Source of the DNA: a virus | Taxonomy: Duplodnaviria > Heunggongvirae > Uroviricota > Caudoviricetes | Virus record (IMG/VR): IMGVR_UViG_2917398303_000004 | Location: 1-40,414 of that record | Length of the DNA: 40,414 nt | Reading direction: 5' to 3' (one strand) | Shown: positions 330 through 33,886 of the stretch, piece after piece | How positions within the stretch are numbered: position 1 is the stretch's first letter | Layout of the letters: every line of letters begins with the position of its first letter | Program-made: the position numbers and the translations under genes | The notes under the pieces: model-generated | Database searches by the model: none | What the model saw: the letters and a program-made list of their open reading frames with translations, nothing else | What the model was told of the DNA's origin: nothing

Positions 330-1439
330 GTGAGCAAAAGAATCGAGTTTGCAAACACGATACGAGGCGTTGCCAGCATGGTTGTTATGTTGGCTCATTA
401 CATAATATCGTTTAATGCCTTCTCTGGTGGCTATGGAGGCCTCCCAAAGATAGAAGGAGGTGTTTTTGATTATGCCTCTGGCCTGTTAGGTTTTGGGATG
501 CCAAGTTTCAGTTACGGAGCATTTGGTGTTGCTCTATTTTTTTTAGTTAGCGGCTTTGTAATACCATTATCTCTAACAAAATTAACAACTCAGCGGTATG
601 GTATACTTGCCTTCATGGTTTCACGAGTTCTAAGGATATGGCCCGTATATGTAATTGGTTTTTCCATATCTATGCTATTCCGATGGTTGTCATTCAATGG
701 CTCAGAACTTAGTGACGCCTACAACATTTATGATGTCATATACCACCTAACTCTTTTCAGGGATTGGATTGGCGGAATGCCTTTAGATGGTGTTGGCTGG
801 ACGCTTGAAATTGAGATTAAATTCTATCTGCTATCAGCAATATTTGCTTATGCGACGGTAAAAGGTAAGCAGTACATTACGATCGTTGCTATGGCAGGGG
901 CGTTTGCTGGGTACTACTTTGGCGTTCAGACGCCTATATATTTTATATTCCCGCACAGCATCCTGTATTGCTTCCAGTTCATACTGTTCATGACCATAGG
1001 CACTAACTTATACTTACTGTACGCTGGAGTGATCAGCAAGAACAAGGCCATACTATGGATAGGGGTGTCGTTAGGTTCATTTATTTATGTTTGCCCTCCT
1101 GATTCCAAAGTTGGATATCTTGTCGCATTTTTAGTGTTCCTGTCATGTTATGTCGCAAGAGATAGCTTTAATGGAGGTGCGATAACATCTTTCTTTGCAA
1201 AGATTAGCTACCCAATGTACGTTGTGCATGCTCTTTTTGGATATGTGACAATGTGGTACATGATAAATCTTGGTTTAAACACCTACGTCGCCCTGATTTT
1301 ACAAATATTGATGACAATATCGATATCATACTTAATGCATTTGTATGTAGAGATCCCCTCCCAAAAATATGGAAAAATCGCGTCTGACTTCATAACGGGT
1401 AGAAGGAAGGTAATTCCTGCTGGTATGGCTGTATCGTGA
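330..1439 (+). CDS. Acyltransferase family 3 integral membrane protein (O-antigen acetyltransferase-like lysogenic conversion candidate)
   Basis: 369-aa multi-TM protein, N-terminal R-G-x-A...LAHY motif typical of acyltransferase_3; GTG start; AT-rich relative to neighbours. Confidence 0.7.
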   Translation: MSKRIEFANTIRGVASMVVMLAHYIISFNAFSGGYGGLPKIEGGVFDYASGLLGFGMPSFSYGAFGVALFFLVSGFVIPLSLTKLTTQRYGILAFMVSRVLRIWPVYVIGFSISMLFRWLSFNGSELSDAYNIYDVIYHLTLFRDWIGGMPLDGVGWTLEIEIKFYLLSAIFAYATVKGKQYITIVAMAGAFAGYYFGVQTPIYFIFPHSILYCFQFILFMTIGTNLYLLYAGVISKNKAILWIGVSLGSFIYVCPPDSKVGYLVAFLVFLSCYVARDSFNGGAITSFFAKISYPMYVVHALFGYVTMWYMINLGLNTYVALILQILMTISISYLMHLYVEIPSQKYGKIASDFITGRRKVIPAGMAVS

Positions 1440-10283: not shown

Positions 10284-10284
10284 G

Positions 10285-10928
10285 CTATGTCCACTCCTGC
10301 ATAGCCTGCTCCAGTGAAATGGAAGGCTCGTTAATGTGTGGTGTGAAGTCTGTTACTTTGAAGGAGGGGGAATCTTTTCCACGATTGACGTTAGCCAGCA
10401 CAGAAGAGATAAGGCCAGCGGCCCACTCAGTACGCATCATTCCGTTAAGGCTACCGTACTTTTGACGGTAAAGAACCCAGTCGCGATACTCTGTAACGCT
10501 AACGCGTTCTTTTGCTTCAGCAATGGTACGACCGCCGATCCCGTTGAGAACTAATTCACACCAGAATTCGTCTTCTGCGCTGAGTTCGCCTTTCCCAGGT
10601 CGTTAACCTGCTGAATAGCGACAAGCAGAGCAACGGTAAGAGCACCATCAAGTGCGCCGCGCTCAGGGTCTGCTTCACCAGTGATATCGGCGACAGTGAA
10701 AACAGGTGCACCATTTTCATCACAGATTGATGCAGCAATACGCCCTGCAACACCATCAATTTTTCCCACTGCTGAAAGAACATTTGATACCGCGTCGTGA
10801 TAACCCATTGGGCGGATATAAACGGTAGCTGTGATCTCCTTATCACCTTGCTTCCAGGTAATTTCCTTTTCAACAGGACGACCAGTGAACGCCCCTGCCT
10901 GTTTTAACGAATCCATATTCAGTTTCAT
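10285..10928 (-). CDS. Tail assembly chaperone G-T fusion produced by programmed -1 frameshift
   Basis: Own translation: -1 frame is open from the GGGAAAG site (10590-10596) to TAG at 10285-10287, ending 1 nt before the tape measure ATG. Confidence 0.6.
10551..10928 (-). CDS. Tail assembly chaperone (G-like)
   Basis: 125-aa ORF between major tail and tape measure genes; contains slippery heptamer near its 3' end. Confidence 0.7.
   Translation of the reverse strand: MKLNMDSLKQAGAFTGRPVEKEITWKQGDKEITATVYIRPMGYHDAVSNVLSAVGKIDGVAGRIAASICDENGAPVFTVADITGEADPERGALDGALTVALLVAIQQVNDLGKANSAQKTNSGVN
10590..10596 (-). other. Slippery heptamer G GGA AAG (programmed -1 ribosomal frameshift site)
   Basis: Exact X XXY YYZ heptamer, identical to the lambda G/GT slip site, in the zero frame of the chaperone. 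Confidence 0.6.
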
Positions 10929-10978
10929 TTCTTTCCTCTCAATTTGCGGGGTTTCCCCCGCTCATTAATGTCTGGTTA

Positions 10979-11476: not shown

Positions 11477-11490
11477 AATTATCTCCGGGT

Positions 11491-11517: not shown

Positions 11518-11528
11518 TGGAAGGTTTG

Positions 11529-11894
11529 TTATCGGTTGACTATCCAGTCAACGTCGAAAGAATATCGATACCTGAGCGTCTCAGGGTCTCGCGTCTGATT
11601 ATCCCAGCGAACAATGTTGGCTTTTACCTCAATCGCATTACGCATGGCTTTAGCGACCGCAATAGCCTCATCAGGGGTATCGGCATAGATATCAACCTGA
11701 AGCGAATACATGTCCGCATCTGGTCGTTGGTTAAGGAAATTTTCAGGAGAGCCGCTGATGTTCTGCCAGACGGCGTATGGATAAACAACGTTATCGTCCT
11801 GAATACCGAAAGGGTAAATTCTTACCGGATTGCTTCCGAGTAGAGCAGTGACTTCAGGACTCGACGCGCAAACAGGAAAAATAGGAGCAATCAT
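11529..11894 (-). CDS. Tail completion / neck protein (hypothetical)
   Basis: 121-aa ORF in head-tail joining gene block. Confidence 0.4.
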
Positions 11895-12376
11895 GCCGTC
11901 TCTCCTTTCTTCTGTGCTCGTTTGATAGCTCGGTCAATCCCCGCTTCGTAGTTAACAGAGAAGGTGTTGAAAACCTCTATCAGCCTGGAATTTGCAGCAG
12001 CACGAACGAGCGGTTTTGCTGCCATCTTTTCAGTGCCAAACTCAAGAAGGCGCCAGTGAGGAGTGGGTGCATCTTTCGCAGTGCTTGGATGCTTTTTTAA
12101 TACGGCTCCCTGAAGAATTCCTATCCTGAAGGCAAGATCACCGGTTTGTTTAAACATACGACCATTCCAGCGCATCGCAGCGTTATCAGCAATGCTACGT
12201 GCGGTGTGAGGATCGTCGATCCGCTCTGCGTTTCTCTTTATCTGAGTTACGATAACGTTTCCCGCCTTCCTCAGTGCGGAGCGCCCTGTTTTGCGCTTAG
12301 TTTCCGTGGTAATGGCTTCTAACTTACCAAGCAGTGAATCTACACCTTCAAGCTTAAACTCAATGCTGTCAGCCAT
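11891..12376 (-). CDS. HK97 gp10-like head-tail joining protein
   Basis: 161-aa ORF, position and composition consistent with the HK97 gp10 family; overlapping stop/start. Confidence 0.5.
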   Translation of the reverse strand: MADSIEFKLEGVDSLLGKLEAITTETKRKTGRSALRKAGNVIVTQIKRNAERIDDPHTARSIADNAAMRWNGRMFKQTGDLAFRIGILQGAVLKKHPSTAKDAPTPHWRLLEFGTEKMAAKPLVRAAANSRLIEVFNTFSVNYEAGIDRAIKRAQKKGETA

Positions 12377-12701
12377 CCTTCACCCCCTCTGAGCACGGAA
12401 GCGTGAGATATTCAAGTCCACTATCAGGATCAGGAAGAATCCCCTCAATGCTGTAGATTTTGCCACGGAAAAGAATACGGTCTTTCTCCTGGATATCTTC
12501 CCGGTATCGGATAGTGATTCTGGCCGTTACTTTTACGTTTGATGCCTGGGCTGTAATGAAATCCCTGACCGAAGAGGCAACCACGCTACCCCACACCTCT
12601 GCAAGGTCATTCCAGGTGTATTCCATTGCACCAGTAGTAGGTGACTGTATAGTCGTTCTCCGCTGGATTGTGATGCGGTGGCGCAGTTTTGCAAATTCCA
12701 A
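12369..12701 (-). CDS. Head-tail adaptor / head closure protein
   Basis: 110-aa ORF with features of the phage head-tail joining family; operon position. Confidence 0.5.
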   Translation of the reverse strand: MEFAKLRHRITIQRRTTIQSPTTGAMEYTWNDLAEVWGSVVASSVRDFITAQASNVKVTARITIRYREDIQEKDRILFRGKIYSIEGILPDPDSGLEYLTLPCSEGVKDG

Positions 12702-12703
12702 AA

Positions 12704-12904
12704 TTACCTCGGCTTGCCATCAAGATAGGTTTGCGGTGGCAAATCATCGTCAATTTCATCAACGAGCGTTTTTGCAATCAGAGATACCAGCGTTTCATCA
12801 GCCTGAGCCAGGCGATTTATCGCTTCTGCCTGTTTGAGTTGAGACGCCGCCAGTGCCTTCAGCGCTACCGTTAATTCGTTTACCTGCTGCTCGTTCATAG
12901 GCAA
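12704..12904 (-). CDS. Hypothetical small virion-module protein
   Basis: 66-aa ORF tightly packed between head-tail genes. Confidence 0.35.
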   Translation of the reverse strand: MPMNEQQVNELTVALKALAASQLKQAEAINRLAQADETLVSLIAKTLVDEIDDDLPPQTYLDGKPR

Positions 12905-12969
12905 TCCTCGTCCACTTTTTTATCCACTCGCGCCGTTTGACGCATCCTGCGCATGCCATACCCGCCCCC

Positions 12970-13296
12970 TTAAAGAATTGTCGGCTTACGGAGGTCGTAA
13001 ATCAGCATTGAAACAGAAAATGGAAGTTCACCTTGTTTCAGCTTCTCTTCCTCTTCGCCGCCACGATTACGGTCAAGATAGCCAAGCAGAACCAACAGGG
13101 CTGTCTGAACGCGAGTAAGCGGCTCACCATCGATAAGTTTTCCAGTGTCATCAACGATCAGTGACCTGCTTCCCTGGATGTAAGAAAGGATTGCTGCACT
13201 TCCACCCTGTATTTTTAAGGTCAGGTCCAAATCACCGTAATCATCATCGATACGGAGATGAATTTTTGCCTCTTCGAGCGTCACCAGTTCAATCAT
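12970..13296 (-). CDS. Head-tail connector protein (gp6-like)
   Basis: N-terminal LEEAKxHLRIDDD motif typical of gp6-like connectors. Confidence 0.6.
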   Translation of the reverse strand: MIELVTLEEAKIHLRIDDDYGDLDLTLKIQGGSAAILSYIQGSRSLIVDDTGKLIDGEPLTRVQTALLVLLGYLDRNRGGEEEEKLKQGELPFSVSMLIYDLRKPTIL

Positions 13297-14177
13297 GGCT
13301 TATCCCTCAGGTCTCGACCTTTCTTAACAGCAAGTGTCCATCCCTTAGAGCCCGTTTCACCTGGTTTGTCGGTAGTAGGTTCGCTGCAGTGCCACATAGA
13401 GCCGCCCCATGTAACAGTGTCGCCAGGCTGATACTCTGTACCGGCTTTAAACACATCACGATAAATAGTTACCGGGATGTCAAAGGACTTAACTTCAACT
13501 GCTCCACTTGCTCTTTCCAGTGAGATTGAGAAGGTTCGCTGTTTATCCTGTTTGATATCGACGTTCGACACGCCATCAACGATGCATTCCCAGCCTCGCA
13601 TGCCGTGCGTCTTTTCATGAGAGCGCCAAAGACCGCCGTTGTGTGTTGCGTAAGTTCCGCGAGGGTAACTTTTCGTCTCGTCAATGAATGGTTCTAGCTC
13701 GATTGATAAAGCATCTTTACCATCGCTGCCAGGCTCAGGAACTTGAATGTTCGCGGCCACATCTTCAGCCAGTTTTTCAACATCTACCGGCTCTGGAAGT
13801 GATGCTGATACAACCTCTTCAACCAGAGAGCGAAGGTCTTCTGCACTGACGCTTTTACCATCCTTAGGCTTGGGTAGTGATTCTAAAGCCTGCTTCACCG
13901 CACTTTCGGCTGCGTCGTCAATGATCTGGCTAAAGTCGGGTAGTTCTGGTGATTTTGGCAACTCAATAGCGCTTACCGCTTCCGCAACCATTTTGGATAC
14001 ATCAGGAATTTCTACAGGTTGAACTTCAGGGATTGATCCCCTCAGTTCTTCAAGTTGCTTTTCCAGATTACTGGCTGTTTTCTCCAGCGCTTGATGAAAG
14101 TCATCTGCCATTTTTTGAATGGCTGTTCCAAACTCTTCACCAAGCGCCTTTATCAGGGATAATTCACGTTCATTCAT
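13293..14177 (-). CDS. Hypothetical head-module protein with coiled-coil N-terminus
   Basis: 294-aa ORF between portal and connector genes; acidic coiled-coil N-terminal half. Confidence 0.4.
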   Translation of the reverse strand: MNERELSLIKALGEEFGTAIQKMADDFHQALEKTASNLEKQLEELRGSIPEVQPVEIPDVSKMVAEAVSAIELPKSPELPDFSQIIDDAAESAVKQALESLPKPKDGKSVSAEDLRSLVEEVVSASLPEPVDVEKLAEDVAANIQVPEPGSDGKDALSIELEPFIDETKSYPRGTYATHNGGLWRSHEKTHGMRGWECIVDGVSNVDIKQDKQRTFSISLERASGAVEVKSFDIPVTIYRDVFKAGTEYQPGDTVTWGGSMWHCSEPTTDKPGETGSKGWTLAVKKGRDLRDKP

Positions 14178-15526
14178 TTTGTTAATAATCCTCTGAGCAT
14201 TGATTTCGCCGCGAAAAGTTCTGTCTCGGTTAATGCTTTTCCACCTTCGTCTACTGGCTCTGGCGATGGCTGCGTCTGTTGCGTCCCTTTCGCGAATGGG
14301 TCTTCTGATGCATCGCGCTTGGCCAGAGCTGCCAGGCTGTAGTTCTGCTGCTGCAGGAAGAGAGAATCACCACCTTCAACAGGAGGAAGGTTTTCACTTT
14401 TACGGGCTTCGTTTGGAGTAAGAATGGTGCTTTTGACGCCATCACCCAACGCTTTCATTCTGCGTTCGCTGTCCATGCGTAATAGTGCGCCGATATCAAG
14501 TTCAACCCGCTTTTTTACACCAAGATCGAAAGCTTCTTTCAGAAGAGACTCGATAGATTCAATCAGCACCTGCAGGCACTGTGAGTAATATTGTTGCTCA
14601 AGCGCTTCAACGTTGTCAGAACTGGGTATTTCTCCTACGCCAGCTTTATATGCCGGGACGTGGAAAGCTGAGCAAACCATTTCAGCAGAGAGTTTCTGCT
14701 GCTCAACAGTCTGTGCATCGACAGCTGACATGGTGATCGCTTTGTATTCTGCGCCGCCTGATAGCAGTCCAGTTTTCCCAGCATTTTCTCCGGTGTAACC
14801 TGTATCCCACCCTGCTTTAATTTCTCTCGCTTTAACTTCATCAATTGAGCCAGGAACAGTGATAACACCGCTTGGTTTACCTCCATTTTTAAAGAAGAAT
14901 GCAGAGCTTTCCTGAATGTGCTTCCCCTGCATTGCGGCGAGTCCGCAGGCGTAGATGGGAGAAATGCCAATAAGAGGATGAAATAGGCAATTAAAGCGAT
15001 CGTGAATGATTTCGCGTGCAGGTACGGTTACTTGTGCCGGGAGACCACTAATCTGGTCAGGACTGATTTGGTAAAAGACAGACCCGTCATCAGCGACCAA
15101 AGGGATGACTTTATCCGGATCAAGAATGCGAAGCTCTGTAATTTTCCCGGTATTATTTTTTACCTTCATCACGTAGGTGTTACCGCGTGAAAGTTTAGAA
15201 TTCATCCACGTTTCAAAGAACTGAATTGTGTTCTGAAACTGGTTAGGTTTGCTGATTAGTTTATCGAAATTGTCATCCGCAACTTCTTTCCAGATGCCAT
15301 TAGAATCTTTGGCCTGAATGGATGGCGACATCTTTGAAATGTCACTGGCAATCAGGGTTATGCAGGAAAACACCGCATAATAGGAAAGTACGGTTTCATT
15401 CCTGATTTCCATGTTTCTTTGCCAGGCGCCTGCGAAAGGTTCTCTGACAAAGGAAAATATTGGAGTCCAGCCGCGAGATGATGGTTGCTGTAGTGCTTTC
15501 TCTTTCCGTCTAAAAGGATTCCACAT
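14174..15526 (-). CDS. Portal protein (HK97 family)
   Basis: 450 aa with NGGKPSGV...GENAGKTGLLSGGAEYK region typical of the Phage_portal family. Confidence 0.7.
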   Translation of the reverse strand: MWNPFRRKEKALQQPSSRGWTPIFSFVREPFAGAWQRNMEIRNETVLSYYAVFSCITLIASDISKMSPSIQAKDSNGIWKEVADDNFDKLISKPNQFQNTIQFFETWMNSKLSRGNTYVMKVKNNTGKITELRILDPDKVIPLVADDGSVFYQISPDQISGLPAQVTVPAREIIHDRFNCLFHPLIGISPIYACGLAAMQGKHIQESSAFFFKNGGKPSGVITVPGSIDEVKAREIKAGWDTGYTGENAGKTGLLSGGAEYKAITMSAVDAQTVEQQKLSAEMVCSAFHVPAYKAGVGEIPSSDNVEALEQQYYSQCLQVLIESIESLLKEAFDLGVKKRVELDIGALLRMDSERRMKALGDGVKSTILTPNEARKSENLPPVEGGDSLFLQQQNYSLAALAKRDASEDPFAKGTQQTQPSPEPVDEGGKALTETELFAAKSMLRGLLTK

Positions 15527-15696
15527 CAGCCATTCTCCGCGTTAACTTTTTTCTTTTTCGGTCCGCCAGCTTTTTTGCCAGTCAAATATTCAGCTTTATG
15601 CAGCAGAACCAGCACCTTTGCGCACTGGTCATTCACATTTTTCTCATCACCTGGCAATGAGTCATGTGTACGCTGTAGGTATCTGATCTTTGCCAT
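15526..15696 (-). CDS. Small Lys-rich ORF (56 aa) translationally coupled to portal gene
   Basis: Own translation; TGATG stop/start overlap with portal ATG; below the ORF-track size cutoff. Confidence 0.3.
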   Translation of the reverse strand: MAKIRYLQRTHDSLPGDEKNVNDQCAKVLVLLHKAEYLTGKKAGGPKKKKVNAENG

Positions 15697-15728
15697 ATGA
15701 AATGGCGGGGTTTCCCCCGCCCTCCTTC

Positions 15729-17375
15729 TTAGCTGGTAGCGCCAGTGCTGTAATCAACGCCGGAGATAACAGCTACTGCTGCATCGCGACGGCGTTTCCA
15801 GTTAATCCAGCGCTCTGCACGAATGGCCACGCTGTTGGTCTGGAACATGGATACCAGTTCCACTGCCGTTGGTGTGGTGCTGTCATGGGTCGGAGTACTC
15901 TGCATTTCCAGAGAAGCTTCGCGAGACATATCAACGGCGACACCGCCGTCATCAGCCAGGTACACATCCGGCGCGTTAACCAATACCAACTGATTGCCAA
16001 CGTACTGGGAGACAATTACTGGCAGACCCTGGAATGTACCGCCCAGCATGGTCATGTCAGGATACTCTTTCTGGCCCAGGGCATTTTTACGCATTGAGAG
16101 AGTGAGAGCCGTAGTACTGGACATCAGCCATACCGCGCCATTCGGCTGCAGGTTATTGGTAATAAATTGACCAAATGCTGCTGCAGCATCGGTATCCGGA
16201 TCGCCAGTAGACGGAATCGCAGTAATGCCGTTGGTAATAGATGCAGGGGAAACATCAGCCACTGCCGCTTTTGCCGGGTCGATGAAGTCGGTATCCAGCC
16301 GCGCGATCACCGCTTCAGCCAGGGCGTTACGCACCAGAGCATCAGCAGATGGATTTGAGAAACGGATCAACTCTTCGGTCAGTACTGCAATAGAAGCCAC
16401 CTTGGAGAAACCGAAGGTGATGGTTGCGAAGTCAAACTTGGTCAGAGGCTTGGCTTTACCCTGACCAACCCAGTTAGCAGAACCTCCGGAGGTCTGCGCC
16501 GGAATTCGAACATTGAACGGAACCTGACGCAGGGACGGGATGTTACCCTGGCCAAAACGTCCGATAATGGTCTGAGGACGCAGAAACTCAACGAAATCCT
16601 GCGCGTAATCCTGATATTCAACCAGTGCACCAGCCCAGGCAGGGTCTGTGGTAGTGCCAGCACTTACCGCAGCTTTCAGAACGTGATGAAGTTTGGTGTC
16701 ATCAGGATACTGGTTTTTCGCAATCTGTAGCGCTTCGGAGCGGCTACCGTTACCAGCTGCCAGAGACTTGGCAAAACGGGCAAAGGCAATACCTTTTTCC
16801 AGCTTAGGCTCTACACGGATGATGGATGGTGCGTTATTCACCACTGTAACTTCACCAGATGCTGCTTTAGTTACTGGCTTGGCGGTTGATGCCATGCTGG
16901 TTTCCATATCACGCAGGCGTTTAAGGTGCTCGTCGACCGCTTTGATTTCAGTAGAGGTGTTGTCGTAGCTTTCTGTTTCTTCCGCATCCAGCGTGCGGCC
17001 TTCATCGGCGGCTTTGCTCATGATGTCGTTCAGTGAAGAGGCCAGCGCTGCACGCTTGTTTTCAAAACTTTTGATCTGTTCAGCGATATTCATCGTTGAT
17101 TTTCCTTTTTGAGAAGATTTATTCGGTGCTGAAGCGCCAGCAGAATTTATGGTTTTCACTACCGGTTTCTCAGTGCCGAGCGCGGCGAGTAACTGGCGGT
17201 CAAACGATTTAACGGTTTGAATCGAACACTCGGCATTCGCCGGGATCGTTACTGCAGAGACTTCAAGAAGCTCCCATTCAAGAAAATGGATGCCACCAGA
17301 GCCGAGATATGCGTATTTAATTGGCTTGAAGCCGATAGAAAGGCCTTTCACAGACCTGATTTGATCGATGCCCAC
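15729..17375 (-). CDS. Major capsid protein (HK97 fold) with N-terminal scaffold-like delta region and the C-terminal part of an S78 prohead protease domain
   Basis: GLSIGF protease Ser motif at N-terminus, coiled-coil segment, then capsid-fold core; in a different frame from the protease N-terminal ORF. Confidence 0.75.
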   Translation of the reverse strand: MGIDQIRSVKGLSIGFKPIKYAYLGSGGIHFLEWELLEVSAVTIPANAECSIQTVKSFDRQLLAALGTEKPVVKTINSAGASAPNKSSQKGKSTMNIAEQIKSFENKRAALASSLNDIMSKAADEGRTLDAEETESYDNTSTEIKAVDEHLKRLRDMETSMASTAKPVTKAASGEVTVVNNAPSIIRVEPKLEKGIAFARFAKSLAAGNGSRSEALQIAKNQYPDDTKLHHVLKAAVSAGTTTDPAWAGALVEYQDYAQDFVEFLRPQTIIGRFGQGNIPSLRQVPFNVRIPAQTSGGSANWVGQGKAKPLTKFDFATITFGFSKVASIAVLTEELIRFSNPSADALVRNALAEAVIARLDTDFIDPAKAAVADVSPASITNGITAIPSTGDPDTDAAAAFGQFITNNLQPNGAVWLMSSTTALTLSMRKNALGQKEYPDMTMLGGTFQGLPVIVSQYVGNQLVLVNAPDVYLADDGGVAVDMSREASLEMQSTPTHDSTTPTAVELVSMFQTNSVAIRAERWINWKRRRDAAVAVISGVDYSTGATS

Positions 17376-17665
17376 GCTTCTTCAAGCCTAGCCACAAGTT
17401 GCGATGGCATGTCAGGTGTTGGCTTAACAAGTTGCGCCGTGATCTGAAGCCCTTCATTCACTTTCTTTGCAGAACAGTTCCCAATAGGTTGGGTTCTGTC
17501 GTGCTGCCAGAGAAAAGGGTTTTCACTGCCGAACTTCGCACCGTCTGGGTCCATAATGTCGCCGTCACGGTCAGGTGATGGTGTGGAAGCAATCCCGGTG
17601 ATTATCCGTTTGTCCTCATCCACCGCTTTCACCGTCATGATCGTACATGCGCGGTCAAGCTTCAT
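17348..17665 (-). CDS. Prohead protease (S78/U35 family) N-terminal portion, frame-broken from the downstream ORF
   Basis: Contains the WQHD catalytic His region; the Ser motif lies in the overlapping ORF 15729-17375. Confidence 0.55.
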   Translation of the reverse strand: MKLDRACTIMTVKAVDEDKRIITGIASTPSPDRDGDIMDPDGAKFGSENPFLWQHDRTQPIGNCSAKKVNEGLQITAQLVKPTPDMPSQLVARLEEAWASIKSGL

Positions 17666-17723
17666 TTACTGTCCTCCAGAAACGAAAAAAACCGCCGCTG
17701 CGGGTTATTAACTGACGTGTTAT

Positions 17724-17996
17724 TTATATAAAAAAAACCTGGTAATCTTTCTTCTTCGCTTCAGGATTAAGTGCCATTAGCGAAACGGCATTAAACAGGG
17801 CCATAAGGGGGTCAATTTTCCCCTTTCCGCTGGCCTGTTTGGTGATGAGGATAGCGTTACCTTTTGGCTCTACTCTGGCGTTGCCTACACACCAGGCCAT
17901 TAATGGCTGTCCACCATGAATAAGCACCTCCCTCTGCAAGCTTGCGCTCTGTTGTCTTAATCGCACCACCAAGTCTCCAGCCCTGGCTGACACCAA
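17724..17996 (-). CDS. Terminase large subunit C-terminal fragment (alternative frame)
   Basis: HGGQPLMAWCVGNARVEPKGNAIL...GKIDPLMA resembles terminase large subunit C-termini. Confidence 0.5.
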   Translation of the reverse strand: MVSARAGDLVVRLRQQSASLQREVLIHGGQPLMAWCVGNARVEPKGNAILITKQASGKGKIDPLMALFNAVSLMALNPEAKKKDYQVFFI

Positions 17997-19383
17997 CCAC
18001 TGAATCTTCAGGTATTTCAGCTTCTACAAGAGCATCAAGAATCTGACCGACACCAGAAGGGTCAATGCCAATTTTATCCAGCAGTTCCGCATCATTAATA
18101 CGGCTGACATATTCAGCGACTTCCTCCGTGTCCTGTCCTACTCGTTTTACGATAGTGAGGTCACCGGCCTTAACGAAATCGTTGAACCTGGATTCCTCGC
18201 TTTTGCGGCGGCGCACAGCTATTTCATGCGCCCAGGCATGGCCCCAGCCAATCCACTCACGGGTTTCTTTGTCACGACCAATAATGTAAAGACCAAGAAG
18301 GTCATCAAGGCCACCACCATCTATCCCAACCGTAGCAACCTCAGCTCTCTGAAGGATATCGCTGAATGTTACCTGCCTAATTTGCGGCTCCCAGAAATCA
18401 ACGCCTGCCCATCGGTCACTGCGGAGGTTCAGACCAATTTCGATATTGAGGTGTTTCGCAAGGAACTGCTGTAATGTGCCGTCTGTTTTGTTCTGGTTCT
18501 TCAGAAGCTGATCGGCAATCCATTCTTCACTTACCGAACGTCCAATATTTGGATTGGTGATGTAGAAATTTTTTGGTTCAAGGTAAGCCTTACTTTCCAC
18601 CATAGAGTCAGGGAATTCATACAGGACGCCGAGTGTTTTAAGGTCATTAATCTTTCCATCTCGCACAGCACGCCAGTAATCAAGGCGTTCTTTGAATACA
18701 CCAGCAGGTGGTTCATCACTTTGTGTAGTCAGGAATATAACCCAGCCTTCGTTGCGAGATACCTGACCACCAAGTGCTTCCATAAACATGGCTTCGGCAT
18801 TAGCTCGCTTGCCAAACAACCAAAGCTCATCAACCAGAATGCGCCCTGACTTTTTACCTGAAACAGTATCGGTGTCAGCTGCTACTACTTTGAGTGTATT
18901 TCGCGTTACTCGGTGTGTGATGGTGCGGATATGGTCCTGAATCTGGAACATATCAGACAGCTCATCATCGGCGCGTATCATCCCGGCAGCAGGTTTAAAA
19001 CTGTTATCTGCAACCTCTTTTGTCGGCGCGAGAATCAGGTGCTCTTCATCTTCACGCCAGCACAGGATTAGCGCGGTCAGCATAATCCCTGCAGCGATGG
19101 TCGATTTTGTGTTCTTTTTCGAGATAAGTAGTCCATATTCGCGGATTAACTGCTTACCAGTCTCTGCTTCATAGCCACCGAAGATGGCATTTACAAAGTC
19201 AAATACCCATTCCTCTGAGCACTCACCAAATGTTGGCTTCCCTGGTAAATCAGAGACGCGTAACTCTTTGAAGATTCCAAGTGCCTGTTCTGCCTGGTCT
19301 GGGAAAATTGGTGGTGGGATGATTGATTGCTTTGCAACCAGAAGAGATTCCCATTCAGGGCAAGCCGTGGTCCATTGAGCCAT
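17857..19383 (-). CDS. Terminase large subunit (frame-disrupted near its 3' end)
   Basis: ATPase and nuclease-like regions; C-terminal terminase sequence continues in ORF 17724-17996 in another frame. Confidence 0.8.
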   Translation of the reverse strand: MAQWTTACPEWESLLVAKQSIIPPPIFPDQAEQALGIFKELRVSDLPGKPTFGECSEEWVFDFVNAIFGGYEAETGKQLIREYGLLISKKNTKSTIAAGIMLTALILCWREDEEHLILAPTKEVADNSFKPAAGMIRADDELSDMFQIQDHIRTITHRVTRNTLKVVAADTDTVSGKKSGRILVDELWLFGKRANAEAMFMEALGGQVSRNEGWVIFLTTQSDEPPAGVFKERLDYWRAVRDGKINDLKTLGVLYEFPDSMVESKAYLEPKNFYITNPNIGRSVSEEWIADQLLKNQNKTDGTLQQFLAKHLNIEIGLNLRSDRWAGVDFWEPQIRQVTFSDILQRAEVATVGIDGGGLDDLLGLYIIGRDKETREWIGWGHAWAHEIAVRRRKSEESRFNDFVKAGDLTIVKRVGQDTEEVAEYVSRINDAELLDKIGIDPSGVGQILDALVEAEIPEDSVVGVSQGWRLGGAIKTTERKLAEGGAYSWWTAINGLVCRQRQSRAKR

Positions 19384-19386
19384 TGA

Positions 19387-19923
19387 TTACCCCTTGTTAT
19401 TAACAACAAGTTTCGGCGGTGCCATTGCCCCAAACTTGCTACCCGTAGCTGCGACCTTCGCGGCGGCATGTCTCGCATCCTTTTTACCGCCTTCTCCTTT
19501 TTTGGGGTGAAGGTATGGCAGCATTGCTTTTGCGGCGTCTTTTCTGACATCTGTCTCTTCTGATACGTCGTTCATCACTGCTTTCAGGAACTCAAGCGGA
19601 TCATCAAATTCCTTCACCGTTCTGTTAACAACTTTTGGCAGTTCATCTGGTTCAGAAACAGCCTGCTCGACAATGACTTCGGCCCCACGTTTTTTACTGA
19701 TAAACGCGATGATATCCGGGTCTTTTGCCAGCCGGGAACCCTGAGACCTCGCGGTTTTCTCGGAGTAACCGGCCTTTCGGGCTGCTTCAGCCTGGGATGA
19801 ACCGGACATCAGCGCTTGTGCGAATTTGCGCTTTTGTCCTGTTAACACGTCAACATCCTCCAAAGGGGAAAATTTTCTGCGCATGAGAGGGGGCGCGGTG
19901 TCCAGCGCGATCGGCGTTGACAC
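19387..19923 (-). CDS. Terminase small subunit
   Basis: 178-aa ORF with helix-turn-helix-like AEAARKAGYSEKTA segment, immediately upstream of terminase large subunit. Confidence 0.7.
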   Translation of the reverse strand: MSTPIALDTAPPLMRRKFSPLEDVDVLTGQKRKFAQALMSGSSQAEAARKAGYSEKTARSQGSRLAKDPDIIAFISKKRGAEVIVEQAVSEPDELPKVVNRTVKEFDDPLEFLKAVMNDVSEETDVRKDAAKAMLPYLHPKKGEGGKKDARHAAAKVAATGSKFGAMAPPKLVVNNKG

Positions 19924-19949
19924 CCACTGATACCCCCCCGGGTGTTTGG

Positions 19950-20318
19950 TCAGAGAATTACGATGCCAGATTGTGATTTATCTTTCGGCACAGAGTGCTT
20001 CAGAGCCTCACCATCAGGCTGGTTCATTGATGCTTCGCGCGATGACTTACCTGAGTGACACTCAATGCACAGAGTCCACAGGTTGCGCTCATCGTTGTCA
20101 CCACCGAACTGTAGAGCTATGCGGTGATCAAGCTCGCTGTCATGAAGGTCAACTACTCGCTTACACATACAGCAGTGACCACCGTCACGAACATAAATAC
20201 GCCGCTTTAGGCTTACCCTTGCGCTACCACTCACACGGCGATGCTCACCATAAACAGGCTTTATTCGGCGTGTGTCGATAGCCTTTAGGCGCGGTTGTAG
20301 TGTCTTTAGCTTAGACAT
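19950..20318 (-). CDS. HNH endonuclease (terminase-associated)
   Basis: CxxC...DH...N...CxxCH motif; GGAGG Shine-Dalgarno 5 nt upstream of ATG at 20318; adjacent to terminase small subunit as in HK97-like phages. Confidence 0.75.
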   Translation of the reverse strand: MSKLKTLQPRLKAIDTRRIKPVYGEHRRVSGSARVSLKRRIYVRDGGHCCMCKRVVDLHDSELDHRIALQFGGDNDERNLWTLCIECHSGKSSREASMNQPDGEALKHSVPKDKSQSGIVIL

Positions 20319-20904
20319 GTAACCTCCATGCTCTACGTCTTTCTGTTCTTGGCTGATTGTCTCTGGCTGGTTCCACTGGCTGTCCGTCAGCGTGGTCAAC
20401 GAGCGAATAGCATGGATAGACAACAGGACCACCGTAAGCATCGCCTACTGCATAGTCTGCTGCTTTGCCGTGATTCCATTTATCCAGAACTCGCTTGATA
20501 TGCTGATGCGGTACGCTGTAGCAGACGCCATGGATCAGGCGTGGAAGTGTGATGTAATCCGTTCTGCTCTTATCTGCTGCGATTAGCTTTGATGCTATAT
20601 CGAGTTGATATTGTGGAGGACGACCAGTACCGAGATAGAAAGAAACCAGCGCATCAGGGAAGCGCTCAATCCACTCAGCGAGTTTGTTGGTGAACCCATC
20701 AACTGGAATTGCATCGTCTTCTAAAATGACCACTCGGCAAGACTGCTCTTCTGCCCATTCAAGAGCACGGCGGTGATTCCAGTTAGCACCGTTATCTCCC
20801 GTGTCGATAAGCAGTAATGCACCTATCGACTCTGCCAGAATTAATGCTTTTTTGTGGCGCAAATGGTGACCAACAACCACAAACTTTACTTGTGCCTCCA
20901 CCAT
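20311..20904 (-). CDS. Hypothetical protein, possible GT-A-like nucleotide-sugar transferase
   Basis: 197 aa; beta-strand/helix start KFVVVGHH and acidic VVILEDD segment suggest a DxD-type fold; overlaps both neighbours. Confidence 0.4.
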   Translation of the reverse strand: MVEAQVKFVVVGHHLRHKKALILAESIGALLLIDTGDNGANWNHRRALEWAEEQSCRVVILEDDAIPVDGFTNKLAEWIERFPDALVSFYLGTGRPPQYQLDIASKLIAADKSRTDYITLPRLIHGVCYSVPHQHIKRVLDKWNHGKAADYAVGDAYGGPVVYPCYSLVDHADGQPVEPARDNQPRTERRRAWRLHV

Positions 20905-22343
20905 GCCAACTCCTTGCCAACGCCTTCAGACTTGAAGATGGTATGAACCTTCGGCCCGGTAATAACCTTGTTGCCAAATGACTTTGCCACCATGCAAAAT
21001 GCACCCATATCAACTTTCGTTTCTGGAGCTTTCTCAATCTTCCAGAAGCGATGGCTTTCAATCAGATAATGCTGACGGATGATACGATGCGCGAACTCCA
21101 TAACGTCTTCACGGCTACCACCTAACAGGCCAGCATTAAGCAGTGGTTCATCGCGATGCTGCTCGATGAAATCGCTATACGCCTTGCCGTGGTGATTAGC
21201 TTTCATCCATTCGTCAGCATACGTCTTGTGCTCTGAGCCAACGTAAATTTTACCCGACTTCATTTCTTCCCATGGCTCTCGCAACATTTCAACGTCAGTA
21301 CCATCAGTGCACCAGACAAGGTGATACTCAGGGTGCGCACGTAGAAACTGATAGATGTGAAGCCAGCGGGCAAAGTATGGGCTCATGTCCACCAGCGGGA
21401 CTTCCCCCAAGCCAGCACCAGTTGGCGATTCTTTTAATTCGTCAGCCAGGACGATCGGTAATGCGCCGGATATTGAGTCAGCCCATGATTGCAAAACCTG
21501 CGGGTCGGGTTTCATCTTCCCGCCGCGCTGTGGGTCTGGCTGGCTTGTGAGTAGCGTCGTAATCACCAGATTTGGGTTTCTGCTGTACGAGGCAAAGCCT
21601 GTATAACCGCTGTCGCGTCGCGTGTTGAAGATGCCAACGTTTCTTTTTACCAGCGCCTCTCGGTCAGGTCGTGGAATTGAGCGCGTGCCCTCTTCGTTCT
21701 CATCCATTGAATGAATCAGTTTTTCAGAGCCGGCCACATCAGCGAACGCCCAGGTCGATAACCCGGCATTGTGAATGCGTAGCGCCAGATCGGGATGCTC
21801 ATACATGCCGCGACCATAAACCGGATCGAAACCGCCAACCTTCACGATCGCGCTGCGGTGGTAATACAACATCACACCGCGTTGTCCGGTGTAAGCGATA
21901 TGCTTATCATCCCGGTACAGCACAGCCATATCATTAAGCTTTCTCGGCCCAGCAAGATCGAGAAACTGGTAAGCCAGGTGCGGCTCGGGGGATTCGATGT
22001 AGGGAAGATGCCAGTTATCAGCGATGGGCCATGCATCATCATCCCATAGGAAGAAATGCTCGCACCCCGCGTCCATAAGTGCTGAAAGGCTGGCGTTCTT
22101 TGATGCAACTATTCCGAGAGATGTTTTATGACGTAGCAACTTCACACCTTCTGGAACTACAGCAGCATGGTTTGAGCCATCATCGATAACAACCACCAGC
22201 GCACCAGATGGAAGATGCTTCATGTGCTGCTCAATAGAGCGTTTAAGCACTTCAGGACGGTTATGGGTTGTTATTGCGATGCCAATTCGCGATGAGTTGG
22301 TGCATTCTGGTACAAAACGCACACCCCCTATTAAGACTTCCAT
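20886..22343 (-). CDS. Family-2 glycosyltransferase domain protein with approx 250-aa C-terminal domain of unknown function
   Basis: N-terminal IGIAITTHNRPEVL...VVVIDDGS...FFLWDDDAWP matches GT2 signature incl. DxD; no TM segments seen. Confidence 0.65.
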   Translation of the reverse strand: MEVLIGGVRFVPECTNSSRIGIAITTHNRPEVLKRSIEQHMKHLPSGALVVVIDDGSNHAAVVPEGVKLLRHKTSLGIVASKNASLSALMDAGCEHFFLWDDDAWPIADNWHLPYIESPEPHLAYQFLDLAGPRKLNDMAVLYRDDKHIAYTGQRGVMLYYHRSAIVKVGGFDPVYGRGMYEHPDLALRIHNAGLSTWAFADVAGSEKLIHSMDENEEGTRSIPRPDREALVKRNVGIFNTRRDSGYTGFASYSRNPNLVITTLLTSQPDPQRGGKMKPDPQVLQSWADSISGALPIVLADELKESPTGAGLGEVPLVDMSPYFARWLHIYQFLRAHPEYHLVWCTDGTDVEMLREPWEEMKSGKIYVGSEHKTYADEWMKANHHGKAYSDFIEQHRDEPLLNAGLLGGSREDVMEFAHRIIRQHYLIESHRFWKIEKAPETKVDMGAFCMVAKSFGNKVITGPKVHTIFKSEGVGKELAWWRHK

Positions 22344-22666
22344 ACACCACCATCAGCAAGATTACGCGTTGCAAGAAAGTCGTTCACCGCACCCCGTAAC
22401 TCTTCTACCTGTTCAACGGTTAATGGCTCACGTGGATGGATCACAAGATGGATCGCGGTAGGTGCGAGAGGGTTATCCAAATTAATGCGCGGTTGGTTTT
22501 CTGAGTGCTCATTACTAAGGTTAAATGTCGCGATAACCTTCGGTATGGCGTTCGGTTCAGTTTCTAATACTGTTGAAGCCTGTCCATCAAGAAGAACACC
22601 ACCTACGGCTATTCCATATCCGAAGAAACGATTACCACGATACAATTTTGCGAGCTGATATTTCAT
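22331..22666 (-). CDS. Hypothetical protein (first gene of glycosyltransferase operon)
   Basis: 111-aa ORF with AAGGA Shine-Dalgarno; 13-nt overlap with downstream GT gene. Confidence 0.5.
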   Translation of the reverse strand: MKYQLAKLYRGNRFFGYGIAVGGVLLDGQASTVLETEPNAIPKVIATFNLSNEHSENQPRINLDNPLAPTAIHLVIHPREPLTVEQVEELRGAVNDFLATRNLADGGVWKS

Positions 22667-22792
22667 GTGCGTTTCCTTTTAGACGTGAGCCTGTCGCACG
22701 GTAACGCCGCCCGAGAGGTAAACGCAACCTAACGGCATTACCCAGGCTCACTACTGAAAGACTCTCTTTGATGTGCGCGTGCGATGCGCATT

Positions 22793-22819
22793 AAAAAAGC
22801 CCCGCTATTGCGAGGCTAT
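22793..22819 (-). terminator. Rho-independent terminator, copy 2 of a 27-bp perfect repeat
   Basis: AAAAAAGCCCCGCTATTGCGAGGCTAT on + strand; hairpin plus T6 on minus strand; identical to 24161-24187. Confidence 0.55.
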
Positions 22820-22836
22820 TTGTTAAGGGGACTTGC

Positions 22837-23091
22837 TTAGTTAATGCTTAAAATTTCCACAGCTTGTCTTATTTGCCTTGAATCTAGGTCTTCAATATCA
22901 GTAGCCACCAAATAGAAGGATGATTCGCCAGTAAGGGATGTAACGTTAGCTGTAATAATCTCTAATTCAACCTCAGTATCATCGGAAAGCATCCAGTTGA
23001 TAGAGCTAAGTCCATCACCTACGTTGATAACCTCAGGTTTTTTACCCTTAAGAATTAAAATGACACTTTTCATATAATTTCTCTGTTCCAT
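22837..23091 (-). CDS. Hypothetical protein (AT-rich)
   Basis: 84-aa ORF inside repeat-bounded cassette. Confidence 0.45.
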   Translation of the reverse strand: MEQRNYMKSVILILKGKKPEVINVGDGLSSINWMLSDDTEVELEIITANVTSLTGESSFYLVATDIEDLDSRQIRQAVEILSIN

Positions 23092-23141
23092 GACACTTCA
23101 AAACATTATCACAGGCACTCATTAAATGCCTGCTGTAATGC

Positions 23142-23375
23142 TTAATCGTCGAGTTGAAGAACGCCGTGTTCCTCTGACTCTGAGTAGGCGATTAAACCTT
23201 CATATGCCGGAACAATTTCGCCACTTTCTGATTCAAACTCAGGGATGGTTGAGCGGGCGATGGTATAGAAAGGCTGGCCTTCCTGCTCTGCAAATTCTGC
23301 AAGGGATTTGATCTGCTCTGCTGTCAGAACTAATGCTGTCATTGCTTTATCCTTTAGAGGGTATATCGATTGCAT
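23142..23375 (-). CDS. Hypothetical acidic protein
   Basis: 77-aa ORF inside repeat-bounded cassette. Confidence 0.45.
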   Translation of the reverse strand: MQSIYPLKDKAMTALVLTAEQIKSLAEFAEQEGQPFYTIARSTIPEFESESGEIVPAYEGLIAYSESEEHGVLQLDD

Positions 23376-23437
23376 TATCCGCTTACGGGGATAATCATTA
23401 TCAAGCCCACCAGCAGATGAGCTTTGTAATGGTCAAA

Positions 23438-24004
23438 TCAGGTGCGGGTTAATTTGCCTTTTCCCGTGTCAGCCAGCCAGAATTCAATCAGTACATTGGC
23501 CTCATCGACCAGAGTTTTGATTTTCGATACATGGGCAGCCTTCACTCCCTTCCACTCATTCAGTCCAGTGCCAAAAAGGCTGGCAATCCCTTTATCGCGC
23601 TTCATGTCCATGCACGCCTGATTGAGTTCTTGCATCACGCTGGACTTGCGGGGATTAACCGCGACACCTTTCGTCCAGTATTCATAGAGTACGTCGTCGC
23701 ATTCATCCTGATACTGGATCACCTTATCGCGGATTTCTGGATTTACTTTGTTGGGGCTGATGGTTTGGAGCCAGCCAGCAAGTTTACGCAGGGGTAGACA
23801 GACCATTTTTCGTGTTTTGCCATCGTCTGCAACCATAGGGATTTCCTCTACAGTTGAGCTAAAGCGTTTTCTTAACTTCGTTAGCTGCCCCATCCAGTCC
23901 ATTCCCATACCCTTAACAATGGGCTTCATCGGGGTATAAGGTTCACCATTATGGTTAACAACATAGAGTGCGCTGCCGTGGAACGGCACGGTAATGGTAT
24001 TCAT
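23438..24004 (-). CDS. Antirepressor-like protein (P22 Ant N-terminal domain type)
   Basis: ITVPFHG...NGEPY...CLPLRKLAGWLQTI...QYQDECDDVLYEYW resembles P22 antirepressor N-domain; AAGG Shine-Dalgarno upstream of ATG at 24004. Confidence 0.55.
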   Translation of the reverse strand: MNTITVPFHGSALYVVNHNGEPYTPMKPIVKGMGMDWMGQLTKLRKRFSSTVEEIPMVADDGKTRKMVCLPLRKLAGWLQTISPNKVNPEIRDKVIQYQDECDDVLYEYWTKGVAVNPRKSSVMQELNQACMDMKRDKGIASLFGTGLNEWKGVKAAHVSKIKTLVDEANVLIEFWLADTGKGKLTRT

Positions 24005-24160
24005 TGCGTTTGCCTTACTTTGAAATGAACCTTCGCCGCAATAGAAATCAGCCCACCGAAGGCTCGCCAGCACTAACTGACTTCTTCGAAGGCTCATATC
24101 AAAGGGTTCGGATTCGGTGTGGTTAGTTGCGCATTGCGGTGCGCGGTGAAATGCAGTTAC

Positions 24161-24187
24161 AAAAAAGCCCCGCTATTGCGAGGCTAT
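24161..24187 (-). terminator. Rho-independent terminator, copy 1 of the 27-bp repeat, overlapping the o-spanin stop codon
   Basis: Same 27-mer as 22793-22819. Confidence 0.55.
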
Positions 24188-24400
24188 AGTTTCTTTCTGG
24201 CAGTTCGCCTGCCACGCTTTGTTATGCGCCAGAATGTCGCGCTTCGTCTGCTTATCCAGCACGTCGATATCGTTGTCGGTCAGATAGATAATTCTGGTCC
24301 ACAAACACCCGGTATCAACCACCACCGGGGCGGGTGAAGTTTTCGCGCAGCTCGCGATCAACATCGTCATCAGGCATATGGTTAACACTCTGCTGTACAT
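24173..24400 (-). CDS. o-spanin (Rz1-like outer-membrane lipoprotein)
   Basis: Signal peptide with LIASC lipobox, embedded in the +1 frame of the i-spanin gene. Confidence 0.6.
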   Translation of the reverse strand: MYSRVLTICLMTMLIASCAKTSPAPVVVDTGCLWTRIIYLTDNDIDVLDKQTKRDILAHNKAWQANCQKETIASQ

Positions 24401-24593
24401 TGCTGGCCTCTCTGGTGACTTCTGCCTGACGTTCCGCCACTGCAACCTTCGCCGCTGCGTTTTCTTCAGTGCGTTGTCGATCGGCTTTCGCTTCTGCTTT
24501 GCTGGTTCCGCTAATATGGCCAAGACCAAAACCACCGGCAGCGGCAACACAGATAGCACCAATAACACCGATGATGATTTCTACTATGCTCAT
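24315..24593 (-). CDS. i-spanin (Rz-like)
   Basis: N-terminal TM helix then charged coiled-coil; ATGA overlap with endolysin stop. Confidence 0.65.
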   Translation of the reverse strand: MSIVEIIIGVIGAICVAAAGGFGLGHISGTSKAEAKADRQRTEENAAAKVAVAERQAEVTREASNVQQSVNHMPDDDVDRELRENFTRPGGG

Positions 24594-25201
24594 GCAATCA
24601 CCGCTTTCGCTTTGGTGTAACGAACACACCTGTCGTTAATGCCGTTCTGACCGCCATTGATAATCTGAGTGATGCGCGCCAGGTCATCGGTGTACTTCAG
24701 ACAACCTTTGGAGACGTAGAACCATGCAGCAGAACGTGCAGCATTAATGTCTTTCTCCAGCAGTTCAGGGTTAGTAACCAGGTCAAGCTTCAGACCATTG
24801 CCGCAATCGCGGTAATTAGTGAGACCGGTAATCTGAATTAACCCGCGTCCACGGTATTTCCAGCCATAACCAGCAGCTTTGTTACCAAGACGGTTGCTGT
24901 ATACCAGGTTTGCGATAGCTTCCTGACTTGCTGGCTTACCGTTCGCACGCCCAAGCATTGATGCCTGATAGTTCGTTGCCCGGCGTCCAAACGTAGTCAG
25001 TAATGCAGCAGGCGTGTAGTTGAAGTTCTCCACCAGCGCAGAGAATCCCGCTGATTCATGGCCTGCCTGAGCAATGAACATCGCCTTATCTTTTGGCTCA
25101 GTGATGCCAAACTCTTTCATTGCATCCGTAATCGGCTGAAACCAGCGCGCAGCTAACCCGGCGCTAATAACAGCCGCCTGTTGAAATTGTGATTGGTTCA
25201 T
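24590..25201 (-). CDS. Endolysin, glycoside hydrolase family 19 (chitinase-like lysozyme)
   Basis: AQAGHESAGF and YRGRGLIQITG motifs of GH19 lysozymes. Confidence 0.85.
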   Translation of the reverse strand: MNQSQFQQAAVISAGLAARWFQPITDAMKEFGITEPKDKAMFIAQAGHESAGFSALVENFNYTPAALLTTFGRRATNYQASMLGRANGKPASQEAIANLVYSNRLGNKAAGYGWKYRGRGLIQITGLTNYRDCGNGLKLDLVTNPELLEKDINAARSAAWFYVSKGCLKYTDDLARITQIINGGQNGINDRCVRYTKAKAVIA

Positions 25202-25458
25202 TAGTGCCTCAGAGCATCAATAAGACGCGCCACGTTTCCCCGAGCCCAAAGCACGGCGGCGCATATCAGGATGTTAACGATGACCACCAGCCAGTGTGAT
25301 TCCAGGTATAGGCCGAACAGATAGCGGAACGGGATGCTGGCATAAACCAGCACCGTGAAATAAGCGAGAAGAGAAACTATCGGGCGATGTCAGGCACCGC
25401 CACGCTGGTAAAACATCAGAGTAAGAACGATGATCGCGCTAATGCCCGCATTGATCAT
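25201..25458 (-). pseudogene. Holin-like small membrane protein interrupted by in-frame TGA (25390-25392)
   Basis: Own translation: MINAGISAIIVLTLMFYQRGGA-stop-HRPIVSLLAYFTVLVYASIPFRYLFGLYLESHWLVVIVNILICAAVLWARGNVARLIDALRH; TAATG overlap with endolysin start. Confidence 0.35.
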
Positions 25459-25468
25459 CGCTGAAGGA

Positions 25469-25864
25469 TCACTTGTTACCATTGCCGGTCCCTCCACCAC
25501 GTAAACGCGAGAGAATTCCAAACAGGCTACCCAAATCCTGGCTGTTGACGAAAGTCAACAGCTTAATAGCAATTGCGGCAACGATTACCGCGCCCAGCGC
25601 ATCAAGTGGTCTGTCGCTATACCCCGTCCATTTGGAGAAGAAGGAGCCAAGCAGTGGCGCGCCAATAACGCCGAAGATGAATGAGGTGATGAAGTAGCCA
25701 GTCAGCTTAAGGCGGCTGATATTAACCGCCGTAGCGACGTAGAATACCGCGCCAGCGAATGCGCCAAACACAACACCATAATCAATACCGGTTGCGATAC
25801 CAAAAACACTGGCTCCCATAAGGCCACCAGCGGCAACCGTAGTGCCAGAAACAGGATCGGACAT
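25469..25864 (-). CDS. Multi-TM membrane protein, putative holin
   Basis: 131 aa, 3-4 predicted hydrophobic helices, first gene of lysis block. Confidence 0.45.
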   Translation of the reverse strand: MSDPVSGTTVAAGGLMGASVFGIATGIDYGVVFGAFAGAVFYVATAVNISRLKLTGYFITSFIFGVIGAPLLGSFFSKWTGYSDRPLDALGAVIVAAIAIKLLTFVNSQDLGSLFGILSRLRGGGTGNGNK

Positions 25865-33166: not shown

Positions 33167-33886
33167 ATGACAACTATGCCTTGTGCGCTTAATCTTCTAC
33201 TTATGGTGGAAAATGCTAAATACAAAGACTTTGCCGACAGGCTAAACAAGTCTCTCCAAGAGCAATCAATTGGAGTTAAAGAATTGTCAGAGTTCAGTGG
33301 TGTCTCATATGAGATGGCGCGACGCTATACTCTTGGTACTGCAAAACCACGAGATGAAAAGATGATTCGAATTGCAGACAGGCTTGCCGTATCCCCTGCT
33401 TATCTTGATTACGGGGTACCTGTTAATGGCGGTGATGCGCCCGCTACCGGGACGGTTAGAATTCAGCAATTGGATGTACATGCATCAGCCGGTTCGGGAT
33501 ATATCAATCAACCGTTTCCAACGATTGTCAGCTCGATAGAAATACCAGAAGATAGGATTTTCGAATTGTTTGGCCGGAGAAGCTTAGATGGTATCGTGAT
33601 GATCAACGTAGATGGCGACAGTATGATGCCTACGTTGTGCCCTAAGGATCTGCTCTTCATTGATAGTAAAGTTGAGCAATTCAGTGGAGATGGTGTTTAC
33701 GTGTTCAACTTCGAGGACAGTACCTTTGTAAAAAGACTACAAAAAGTTAAAGGTCGTCGTCTGGCTGTCCTATCAGACAATGAACACTATCCTCCCTTCT
33801 TCATAGAAGAACACGAAATGAATGAGGTTTACATCTTCGGCAAACTTATCAGATGTTTACCTCTGAAAATGATAGAGTTTGGATAA
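33167..33886 (+). CDS. cI: CI-like repressor (HTH plus S24 LexA-type autopeptidase domain)
   Basis: N-terminal HTH, C-terminal GDSM Ser motif and downstream Lys; possibly leaderless start at 33167. Confidence 0.8.
   Translation: MTTMPCALNLLLMVENAKYKDFADRLNKSLQEQSIGVKELSEFSGVSYEMARRYTLGTAKPRDEKMIRIADRLAVSPAYLDYGVPVNGGDAPATGTVRIQQLDVHASAGSGYINQPFPTIVSSIEIPEDRIFELFGRRSLDGIVMINVDGDSMMPTLCPKDLLFIDSKVEQFSGDGVYVFNFEDSTFVKRLQKVKGRRLAVLSDNEHYPPFFIEEHEMNEVYIFGKLIRCLPLKMIEFG

Follow-up and report, generated by a model that had tools for sequence, protein, structure and literature searches.

A single extra base divides the HK97-type terminase large subunit gene of a prophage and is probably an Ion Torrent consensus artefact

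Does a prophage whose terminase large subunit gene (terL) is written in two reading frames lack a working packaging enzyme, or does its deposited sequence carry an error? The question is posed by the window, by which we mean the whole 40,414-nt stretch of the virus record IMGVR_UViG_2917398303_000004. An earlier note had described its terL as split across two frames, and the open reading frames (ORFs), the Pfam matches, and alignment to relatives all bear this description out. The two listed ORFs (Table 1) lie in different frames and overlap each other at 17857-17996. Residues 1-485 of ORF1 are authentic TerL, comprising the ATPase domain (TerL_ATPase, PF03354, matched at residues 66-237 with E = 1.1e-09) and most of the RNase H-like nuclease, D355 and D441 included, while its final 23 residues (GAYSWW...AKR) are out-of-frame read-through. 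The authentic C-terminus within ORF2 is confined to 17724..17927, which encodes residues 486-552 and the stop codon and holds the conserved beta-hairpin, a Lys near position 515, and the third catalytic Asp, D524. Three-frame translation reads ...KLAEGGAYSWW...* in one frame and ...LQREVLIHGGQPLMAW...KIDPLMAL... in the +1 frame. The end of the TerL_nuclease profile (positions 228-281 of 286) was matched in ORF2 with an E value of 4e-04 and a score of 20.1 bits, which, taken alone, lies below the 24-bit Pfam cut-off. We considered and rejected ORF2 as a separately translated subunit: the one start listed for it, a TTG, lies 70 nt upstream where the sequence is not homologous, and the break would sit within the nuclease fold.

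Table 1. Coordinates of the packaging and head genes and of the indels that separate the window from its relatives
Feature	Position	Strand	Details and basis
HNH endonuclease	19950..20318	-	PGAP annotation of relatives; PF01844 weak
Terminase small subunit (terS)	19387..19923	-	Terminase_2; NCBI 178 aa in source
TerL ORF1 as deposited	17857..19383	-	508 aa; 1-485 identical to intact TerL
TerL ORF2 as listed	17724..17996	-	90 aa; TTG start
terL lesion, one extra base	17927..17928	-	Alignments to relatives
Prohead protease-major capsid fusion gene	15729..17665	-	645 aa in relatives; Peptidase_S78 and Phage_capsid
Portal protein, intact	14174..15526	-	450 aa; PF04860 and annotation of relatives
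Indel vs. closest relatives, terL	17927/17928		One extra base in window
Indel vs. closest relatives, protease-capsid gene	after 17351		One A missing in window
Indel vs. closest relatives, intergenic	22793		A6 in window vs. A5

Pairwise alignment to intact terminase homologues, the check that the earlier note had proposed, pinpointed a one-base indel at 17927/17928, inside the G-rich run at about 17922-17937 of the overlap where the note had placed the frame switch. On the coding strand the relatives read GAG GGA GTG CTT (E-G-V-L) and the window reads GAG GGA GGT GCT T, which moves the frame by +1 after Gly485. Put as strings, GGGAGTG on the coding strand has become GGGAGGTG, and GCA-CTCC on the plus strand of the relatives appears as GCACCTCC in the window. 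The extra base may be either of two identical bases (CC on the plus strand, GG on the coding strand), and the extra G forms the last base of a GAGGGAGG run at window positions 17927-17934. Deletion of one base yielded a single 552-aa protein that is identical at 552/552 residues to the TerL of GCA_965183505.1 and to Escherichia coli WP_080202546.1. Since residues 1-485 match an intact TerL at 100% identity and so do residues 486-552, the split is not a matter of chance, and the same identity across residues 486-552 means that no further decay was found 3' of the lesion. Both TerL Pfam domains scored above threshold in the repaired protein (for PF20441, E = 3.7e-10 over profile positions 21-281). 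Against its closest relative, terL shows only two substitutions, both synonymous.

The relatives come at two distances. The packaging module recurs in four complete E. coli chromosomes at ~97% identity over terL, and the PGAP annotation of each shows terL (1659 nt) and the protease-capsid gene (1938 nt) as one gene apiece. Much closer are GCA_965183505.1 and the Logan contigs of ERR14660912, which are 99.69% identical to window positions 13681-23431 (~9.75 kb) and differ from it by 27 substitutions and the three indels listed in Table 1. Compared with the first four E. coli relatives alone, the lesion had the appearance of a complex T-to-AG change. This was rejected, as the 99.7% relatives show a plain one-base insertion; the apparent T-to-AG change arises because the Gly485 codon of the more distant relatives is GGT rather than GGA. 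Codons 484-486 of intact orthologues thus read either GAG GGT GTG or GAG GGA GTG, and the window has one G more. We then scanned genome, viral, and metagenome collections, together with the loci already fetched, with a pattern that accepts both alleles. All 14 of the other public copies of the site (14/14) are in frame with 33 nt, compared with 34 nt for the window allele; they come from E. coli chromosomes, a Citrobacter metagenome-assembled genome (MAG), six IMG/VR contigs, and one metagenome contig, and the base that varies among them is the wobble position of Gly485. The extra-G allele was absent from the genome, viral, and metagenome collections scanned, so that no independent isolate in them shares it, and an exact-product look-up found no other contig on record that encodes the 508-aa product. 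Where coverage of the gene is complete, in six or seven relatives, TerL is encoded in one 552-aa frame with at least 98.9% identity.

The surroundings of the gene are those expected of a packaging module, with terS adjacent and the portal and capsid genes nearby. Across 14174-20318 the order is HNH endonuclease, terS, terL, protease-capsid fusion, and portal, and it is kept in all relatives, including E. coli 2017C-4173W12 (source of WP_080202546.1) and GCA_965183505.1. In the relatives, terS is annotated as a 153-aa gene, corresponding to 19387..19848. An HNH gene immediately upstream of terS is typical of HK97-like cos packaging modules, and the window shares with HK97-type terminases both this arrangement of terS and HNH genes directly upstream of terL and the two-domain layout of TerL (PF03354 and PF20441). 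It departs from the canonical HK97 order of terL, portal, protease, and capsid in two respects: the portal comes after the capsid, and the protease, a separate gene in that order, is fused to the capsid. The deposited terL differs further from an HK97-type terL in being interrupted after residue 485.

To judge what the interruption would do to the protein, we aligned it with HK97 TerL (PDB 6Z6D), the only solved relative detectable by sequence, although a distant one (E = 6.5e-06). The chain numbering of 6Z6D is offset by +10, and the residue equivalences given here are those after correction. An N-terminal ASCE ATPase domain with Walker A and B motifs is present in the window TerL; in the alignment KKNTKS is paired with RKNGKT, and VDE at 184-186, the Walker B equivalent, with HK97 D153/E154. 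The nuclease centre of HK97 TerL consists of D302, D388, and D471, with K463 following a conserved beta-hairpin (PMC9410871). D355 (VGIDGGG), D441 (IGIDPSG), and D524 (GKIDPLM) of the window protein align to these three aspartates. All three lie in one polypeptide in the repaired 552-aa sequence but not in the deposited one, where D524 falls in the other frame, and the deposited 508-aa product keeps the ATPase domain and two aspartates while losing the beta-hairpin, the Lys, and D524. Judged by the HK97 structure, the product as written should be nuclease-dead and unable to cut concatemers, because the beta-hairpin and the third catalytic Asp are lost with the shift.

Whether the extra base exists in the organism is a question about the source assembly. 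The window is 100% identical to PDIB01000034.1 of GCA_004745285.1, and PDIB00000000 is the genome of Escherichia cryptic clade II strain E4694, which was sequenced with Ion Torrent single-end reads of 35-400 nt only, at ~50x, and assembled with MIRA/SPAdes (PMC6639607). Indel errors on this platform are ~10 times as frequent as substitutions, and certain positions attract them at very high rates, mostly as A/T insertions or C/G deletions (PMC4719071). Pseudogene counts are clearly elevated in Ion Torrent assemblies, which supply more than half of the genomes excluded from RefSeq for "many frameshifted proteins" (PMC7604302). The false frameshift pseudogenes produced by Ion Torrent and 454 data resemble the present case in several respects: the reads are of flow chemistry only, the count of identical adjacent bases is changed, indels depend on the assembler, and a conserved host gene is also frameshifted. 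They differ in that the run affected here goes only from one to two bases and is not a long homopolymer.

A second assembly was available as Logan contigs of run SRR6148338, which in window coordinates cover 4173-17927, 17939-32344, and 32811-40519. Over 35.9 kb compared, these contigs and the window differ by no substitution and by three discrepancies, all of them one-base indels (at 4766, 18416, and 22793). The third contig reaches only as far as the integrase/tRNA junction, short of the chromosomal gene tcyL, and over its 7.7 kb it agrees perfectly with the window. Given the zero substitutions, SRR6148338 is apparently the E4694 run and both assemblies would represent the same strain and read set, which is the sense in which the assemblies can be said to disagree in indels alone. 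The discrepancy at 4766 is a Logan deletion that splits a 905-aa GpJ-like tail gene. At 18416 a T is missing from the Logan contig, which produces a different terL frameshift (337 aa, at about codon 322), and here the window agrees with all relatives. The Logan contigs' own one-base deletions therefore show that frameshifts in the GpJ-like gene and in terL itself are assembler-dependent. At 22793 the window has an A-run of six where both Logan and the closest relatives have five, so the window's A6 is probably a homopolymer overcall in the deposited consensus.

The Logan assembly does not read through the lesion. Its contigs end at 17927 and begin again at 17939, leaving the 11 bases of 17928-17938 uncovered, and for contigs of ~15 kb the chance of an accidental break at the lesion is about 1e-3. 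A local repeat was ruled out as the cause, as there are no repeated 16-mers. Breaks of this kind in a k-mer graph arise where reads disagree. The break suggests that the reads themselves are ambiguous at 17927/17928.

We also looked at the DNA flanking the ~40-kb prophage, a siphovirus inserted between yecA and the tRNA-Leu/Cys/Gly-pgsA cluster. About 17 kb of the chromosomal part of the source contig, of which ~13.5 kb is coding, was compared with E. coli TST3. The sole frame-breaking indel in this host coding sequence lies in tcyL, a chromosomal cystine permease gene, at about position 17629 of the compared PDIB01000034.1 segment, ~7.6 kb past the right end of the window. The source alone has an A-run of six there, against A5 in E. 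coli and in five further genomes, and NCBI annotates no product. A conserved chromosomal gene thus carries a frameshift similar to that in terL, in what is a small sample. Within the window, a tblastn scan with the ORFs of the relatives found terL and the protease-capsid gene to be the only split genes. Frameshift densities are accordingly one per ~13.5 kb in the host and two per ~35 kb of coding sequence in the prophage, the host figure representing a single event. These similar densities, small as the sample is, fit assembly-wide noise rather than prophage-specific decay. Genomes that share the integrase are only ~80% identical in host DNA (they belong to another genus, although the integrase is identical), which made them unusable for fine indel counting except at tcyL. 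Beyond dcyD (18903-21011 of the compared segment, outside the window), the source contig mismatches E. coli tcyJ-fliZ-fliA and contains different small ORFs. This could be a true clade II difference or a mis-join, the latter because contig order was set by the authors from references and gaps were closed by hand.

Taken together, the Ion Torrent platform, the assembler-dependent indels, the contig break, the tcyL lesion, the identity of the repaired protein, and the 14 in-frame copies lead us to favor, with moderate confidence, the reading that the terL frameshift is a consensus indel artefact of an Ion Torrent-only draft. One G of GGGAGTG would have been counted twice, giving GGGAGGTG and breaking the frame after Gly485, and this run-length miscall would have been carried into a consensus built from Ion Torrent reads only. 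The true gene would then probably be a single 552-aa frame, an ordinary HK97-type terL that is otherwise intact. Against such an artefact, the deposited consensus, at a nominal 50x, does read GG, and other errors are more typical of Ion Torrent than an overcall from one to two Gs. The earlier note had held that the prophage is defective unless the split is an assembly error. The split stands, but the inference of defectiveness is insecure, and the note's own caveat of an error has become the likelier half of its statement.

A real and very recent 1-bp insertion (G to GG) that inactivated terL in the E4694 prophage is nonetheless a substantial possibility, which we put at somewhat under even. 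Concatemer cutting and packaging would then fail, the lost part of the protein holding the equivalents of HK97 D471 and K463, and the prophage, with the protease-capsid gene frameshifted as well, would be defective. The gene does carry an indel relative to intact orthologues, as a genuine pseudogene would; the insertion is present in the deposited consensus, and NCBI calls no product between terS and the portal gene in the source. A second one-base lesion, 576 nt away, also speaks for this reading. In the protease-capsid gene, one A is missing after 17351 (site 17348-17375), which turns CACAAGAC on the plus strand into CACAGAC and splits the gene into a 105-aa ORF and a 548/540-aa ORF. Unlike the terL lesion, the missing A is common to the GenBank and Logan assemblies. 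Because it is reproduced in both, the 17351 lesion may be real, and if it is, genuine decay of the head module, terL included, becomes more plausible. A search for the 105-aa protease fragment elsewhere yielded nothing beyond the Logan contig of SRR6148338, and so no independent confirmation. The count of differences from the closest relative points the same way as the second lesion. Neutral bacterial mutation spectra give an indel-to-substitution ratio near 3:27, and the ratio observed here, 3 indels to 27 substitutions, is thus near the neutral expectation. Genuine TerL pseudogenes also exist in related Stx prophages. Stx2a_F349 (AP012530.1), for example, has a related TerL, with ~74% DNA identity over the 3' part, that is annotated as "large terminase subunit, C-terminal part (pseudogene)". 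That gene, however, is partial and stands in the record of a finished phage, whereas the window terL is complete and undamaged but for one base, matching an intact protein throughout once repaired. A real insertion has also to be reconciled with the indel noise of the platform and assembly, which includes a different false frameshift in terL itself, with the ending of the Logan contigs at this very site, and with an allele found nowhere else.

A programmed +1 ribosomal frameshift, or similar recoding, near the internal SD-like GGAGGU could in principle yield full-length TerL, as in prfB, but we regard this as very unlikely and programmed frameshifting as essentially excluded. The case resembles prfB (RF2) in that the shift required is +1 and an SD-like GGAGG lies immediately upstream, and the insertion does create a perfect GGAGGU core inside terL. 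The SD-like element is, however, itself made by the insertion, and the two-frame layout is not conserved, with every one of the 14 other copies, including the relatives at 99.7% DNA identity, in a single frame. The window also differs from prfB in having no CUU UGA-type shift site. No prfB, Ty1, Ty3, or XXXYYYZ shift motif and no long A/T run was found in the 140-nt overlap, and the codons after the SD-like element (GCU UAU UCA) would, by codon-anticodon rules, bar +1 re-pairing.

Still less probable is a mixed culture in which the G and GG alleles were both present in the sequenced DNA and the assembler chose one; two alleles of comparable abundance would indeed break a k-mer assembly at the site, but position-specific Ion Torrent indel errors leave the same signature, GG is not a mutable contingency tract, and there is no independent evidence for a mixture. 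We give equally slight credence to a real extra G accompanied by low-rate +1 slippage promoted by GGAGGU, or to a true G/GG mixture, either of which would let a trickle of full-length TerL through, so that packaging would be throttled but not abolished.

Read at face value, the window would describe a prophage with its packaging enzyme and its capsid gene both disabled, but at least for the terminase break an Ion Torrent error is the likelier explanation. Single-base frameshifts in this assembly are unfit as the sole ground for calling a prophage defective or a gene a pseudogene, and the same caution probably extends to the 15 sister genomes of the same project. Were the lesion real, it would be a routine example of very recent prophage inactivation. 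Under either reading the gene is that of an ordinary HK97-type TerL, which shows no sign of a new mechanism and raises no new question.

Several other features of the prophage were recorded along the way. Its integrase is encoded at 39404-40414, and its insertion site is shared by related prophages of E. coli TST3 and 2017C-4173W12. On the minus strand at 10285-10928, upstream of the tape measure gene, lie the two genes of a tail assembly chaperone pair, Phage_TAC_13 (10551..10928) and then a Phage_tail_T ORF (10285..10539); this is presumably a G/GT pair of the usual kind, with a programmed frameshift of -1. A tRNA-Arg gene (anticodon tct) at 34575-34653 sits in a ~1.1-kb stretch without called genes, which a CI-like repressor gene (33167..33886) adjoins. 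At the left end (330-3780), an Acyl_transf_3 acyltransferase gene (330..1439) adjoins a tailspike gene (Tail_spike_N/Beta_helix), and a 485-aa family 2 glycosyltransferase is encoded at 20886-22343, just upstream of the HNH-terminase module. The acyltransferase and the glycosyltransferase are possible surface-modification cargo.
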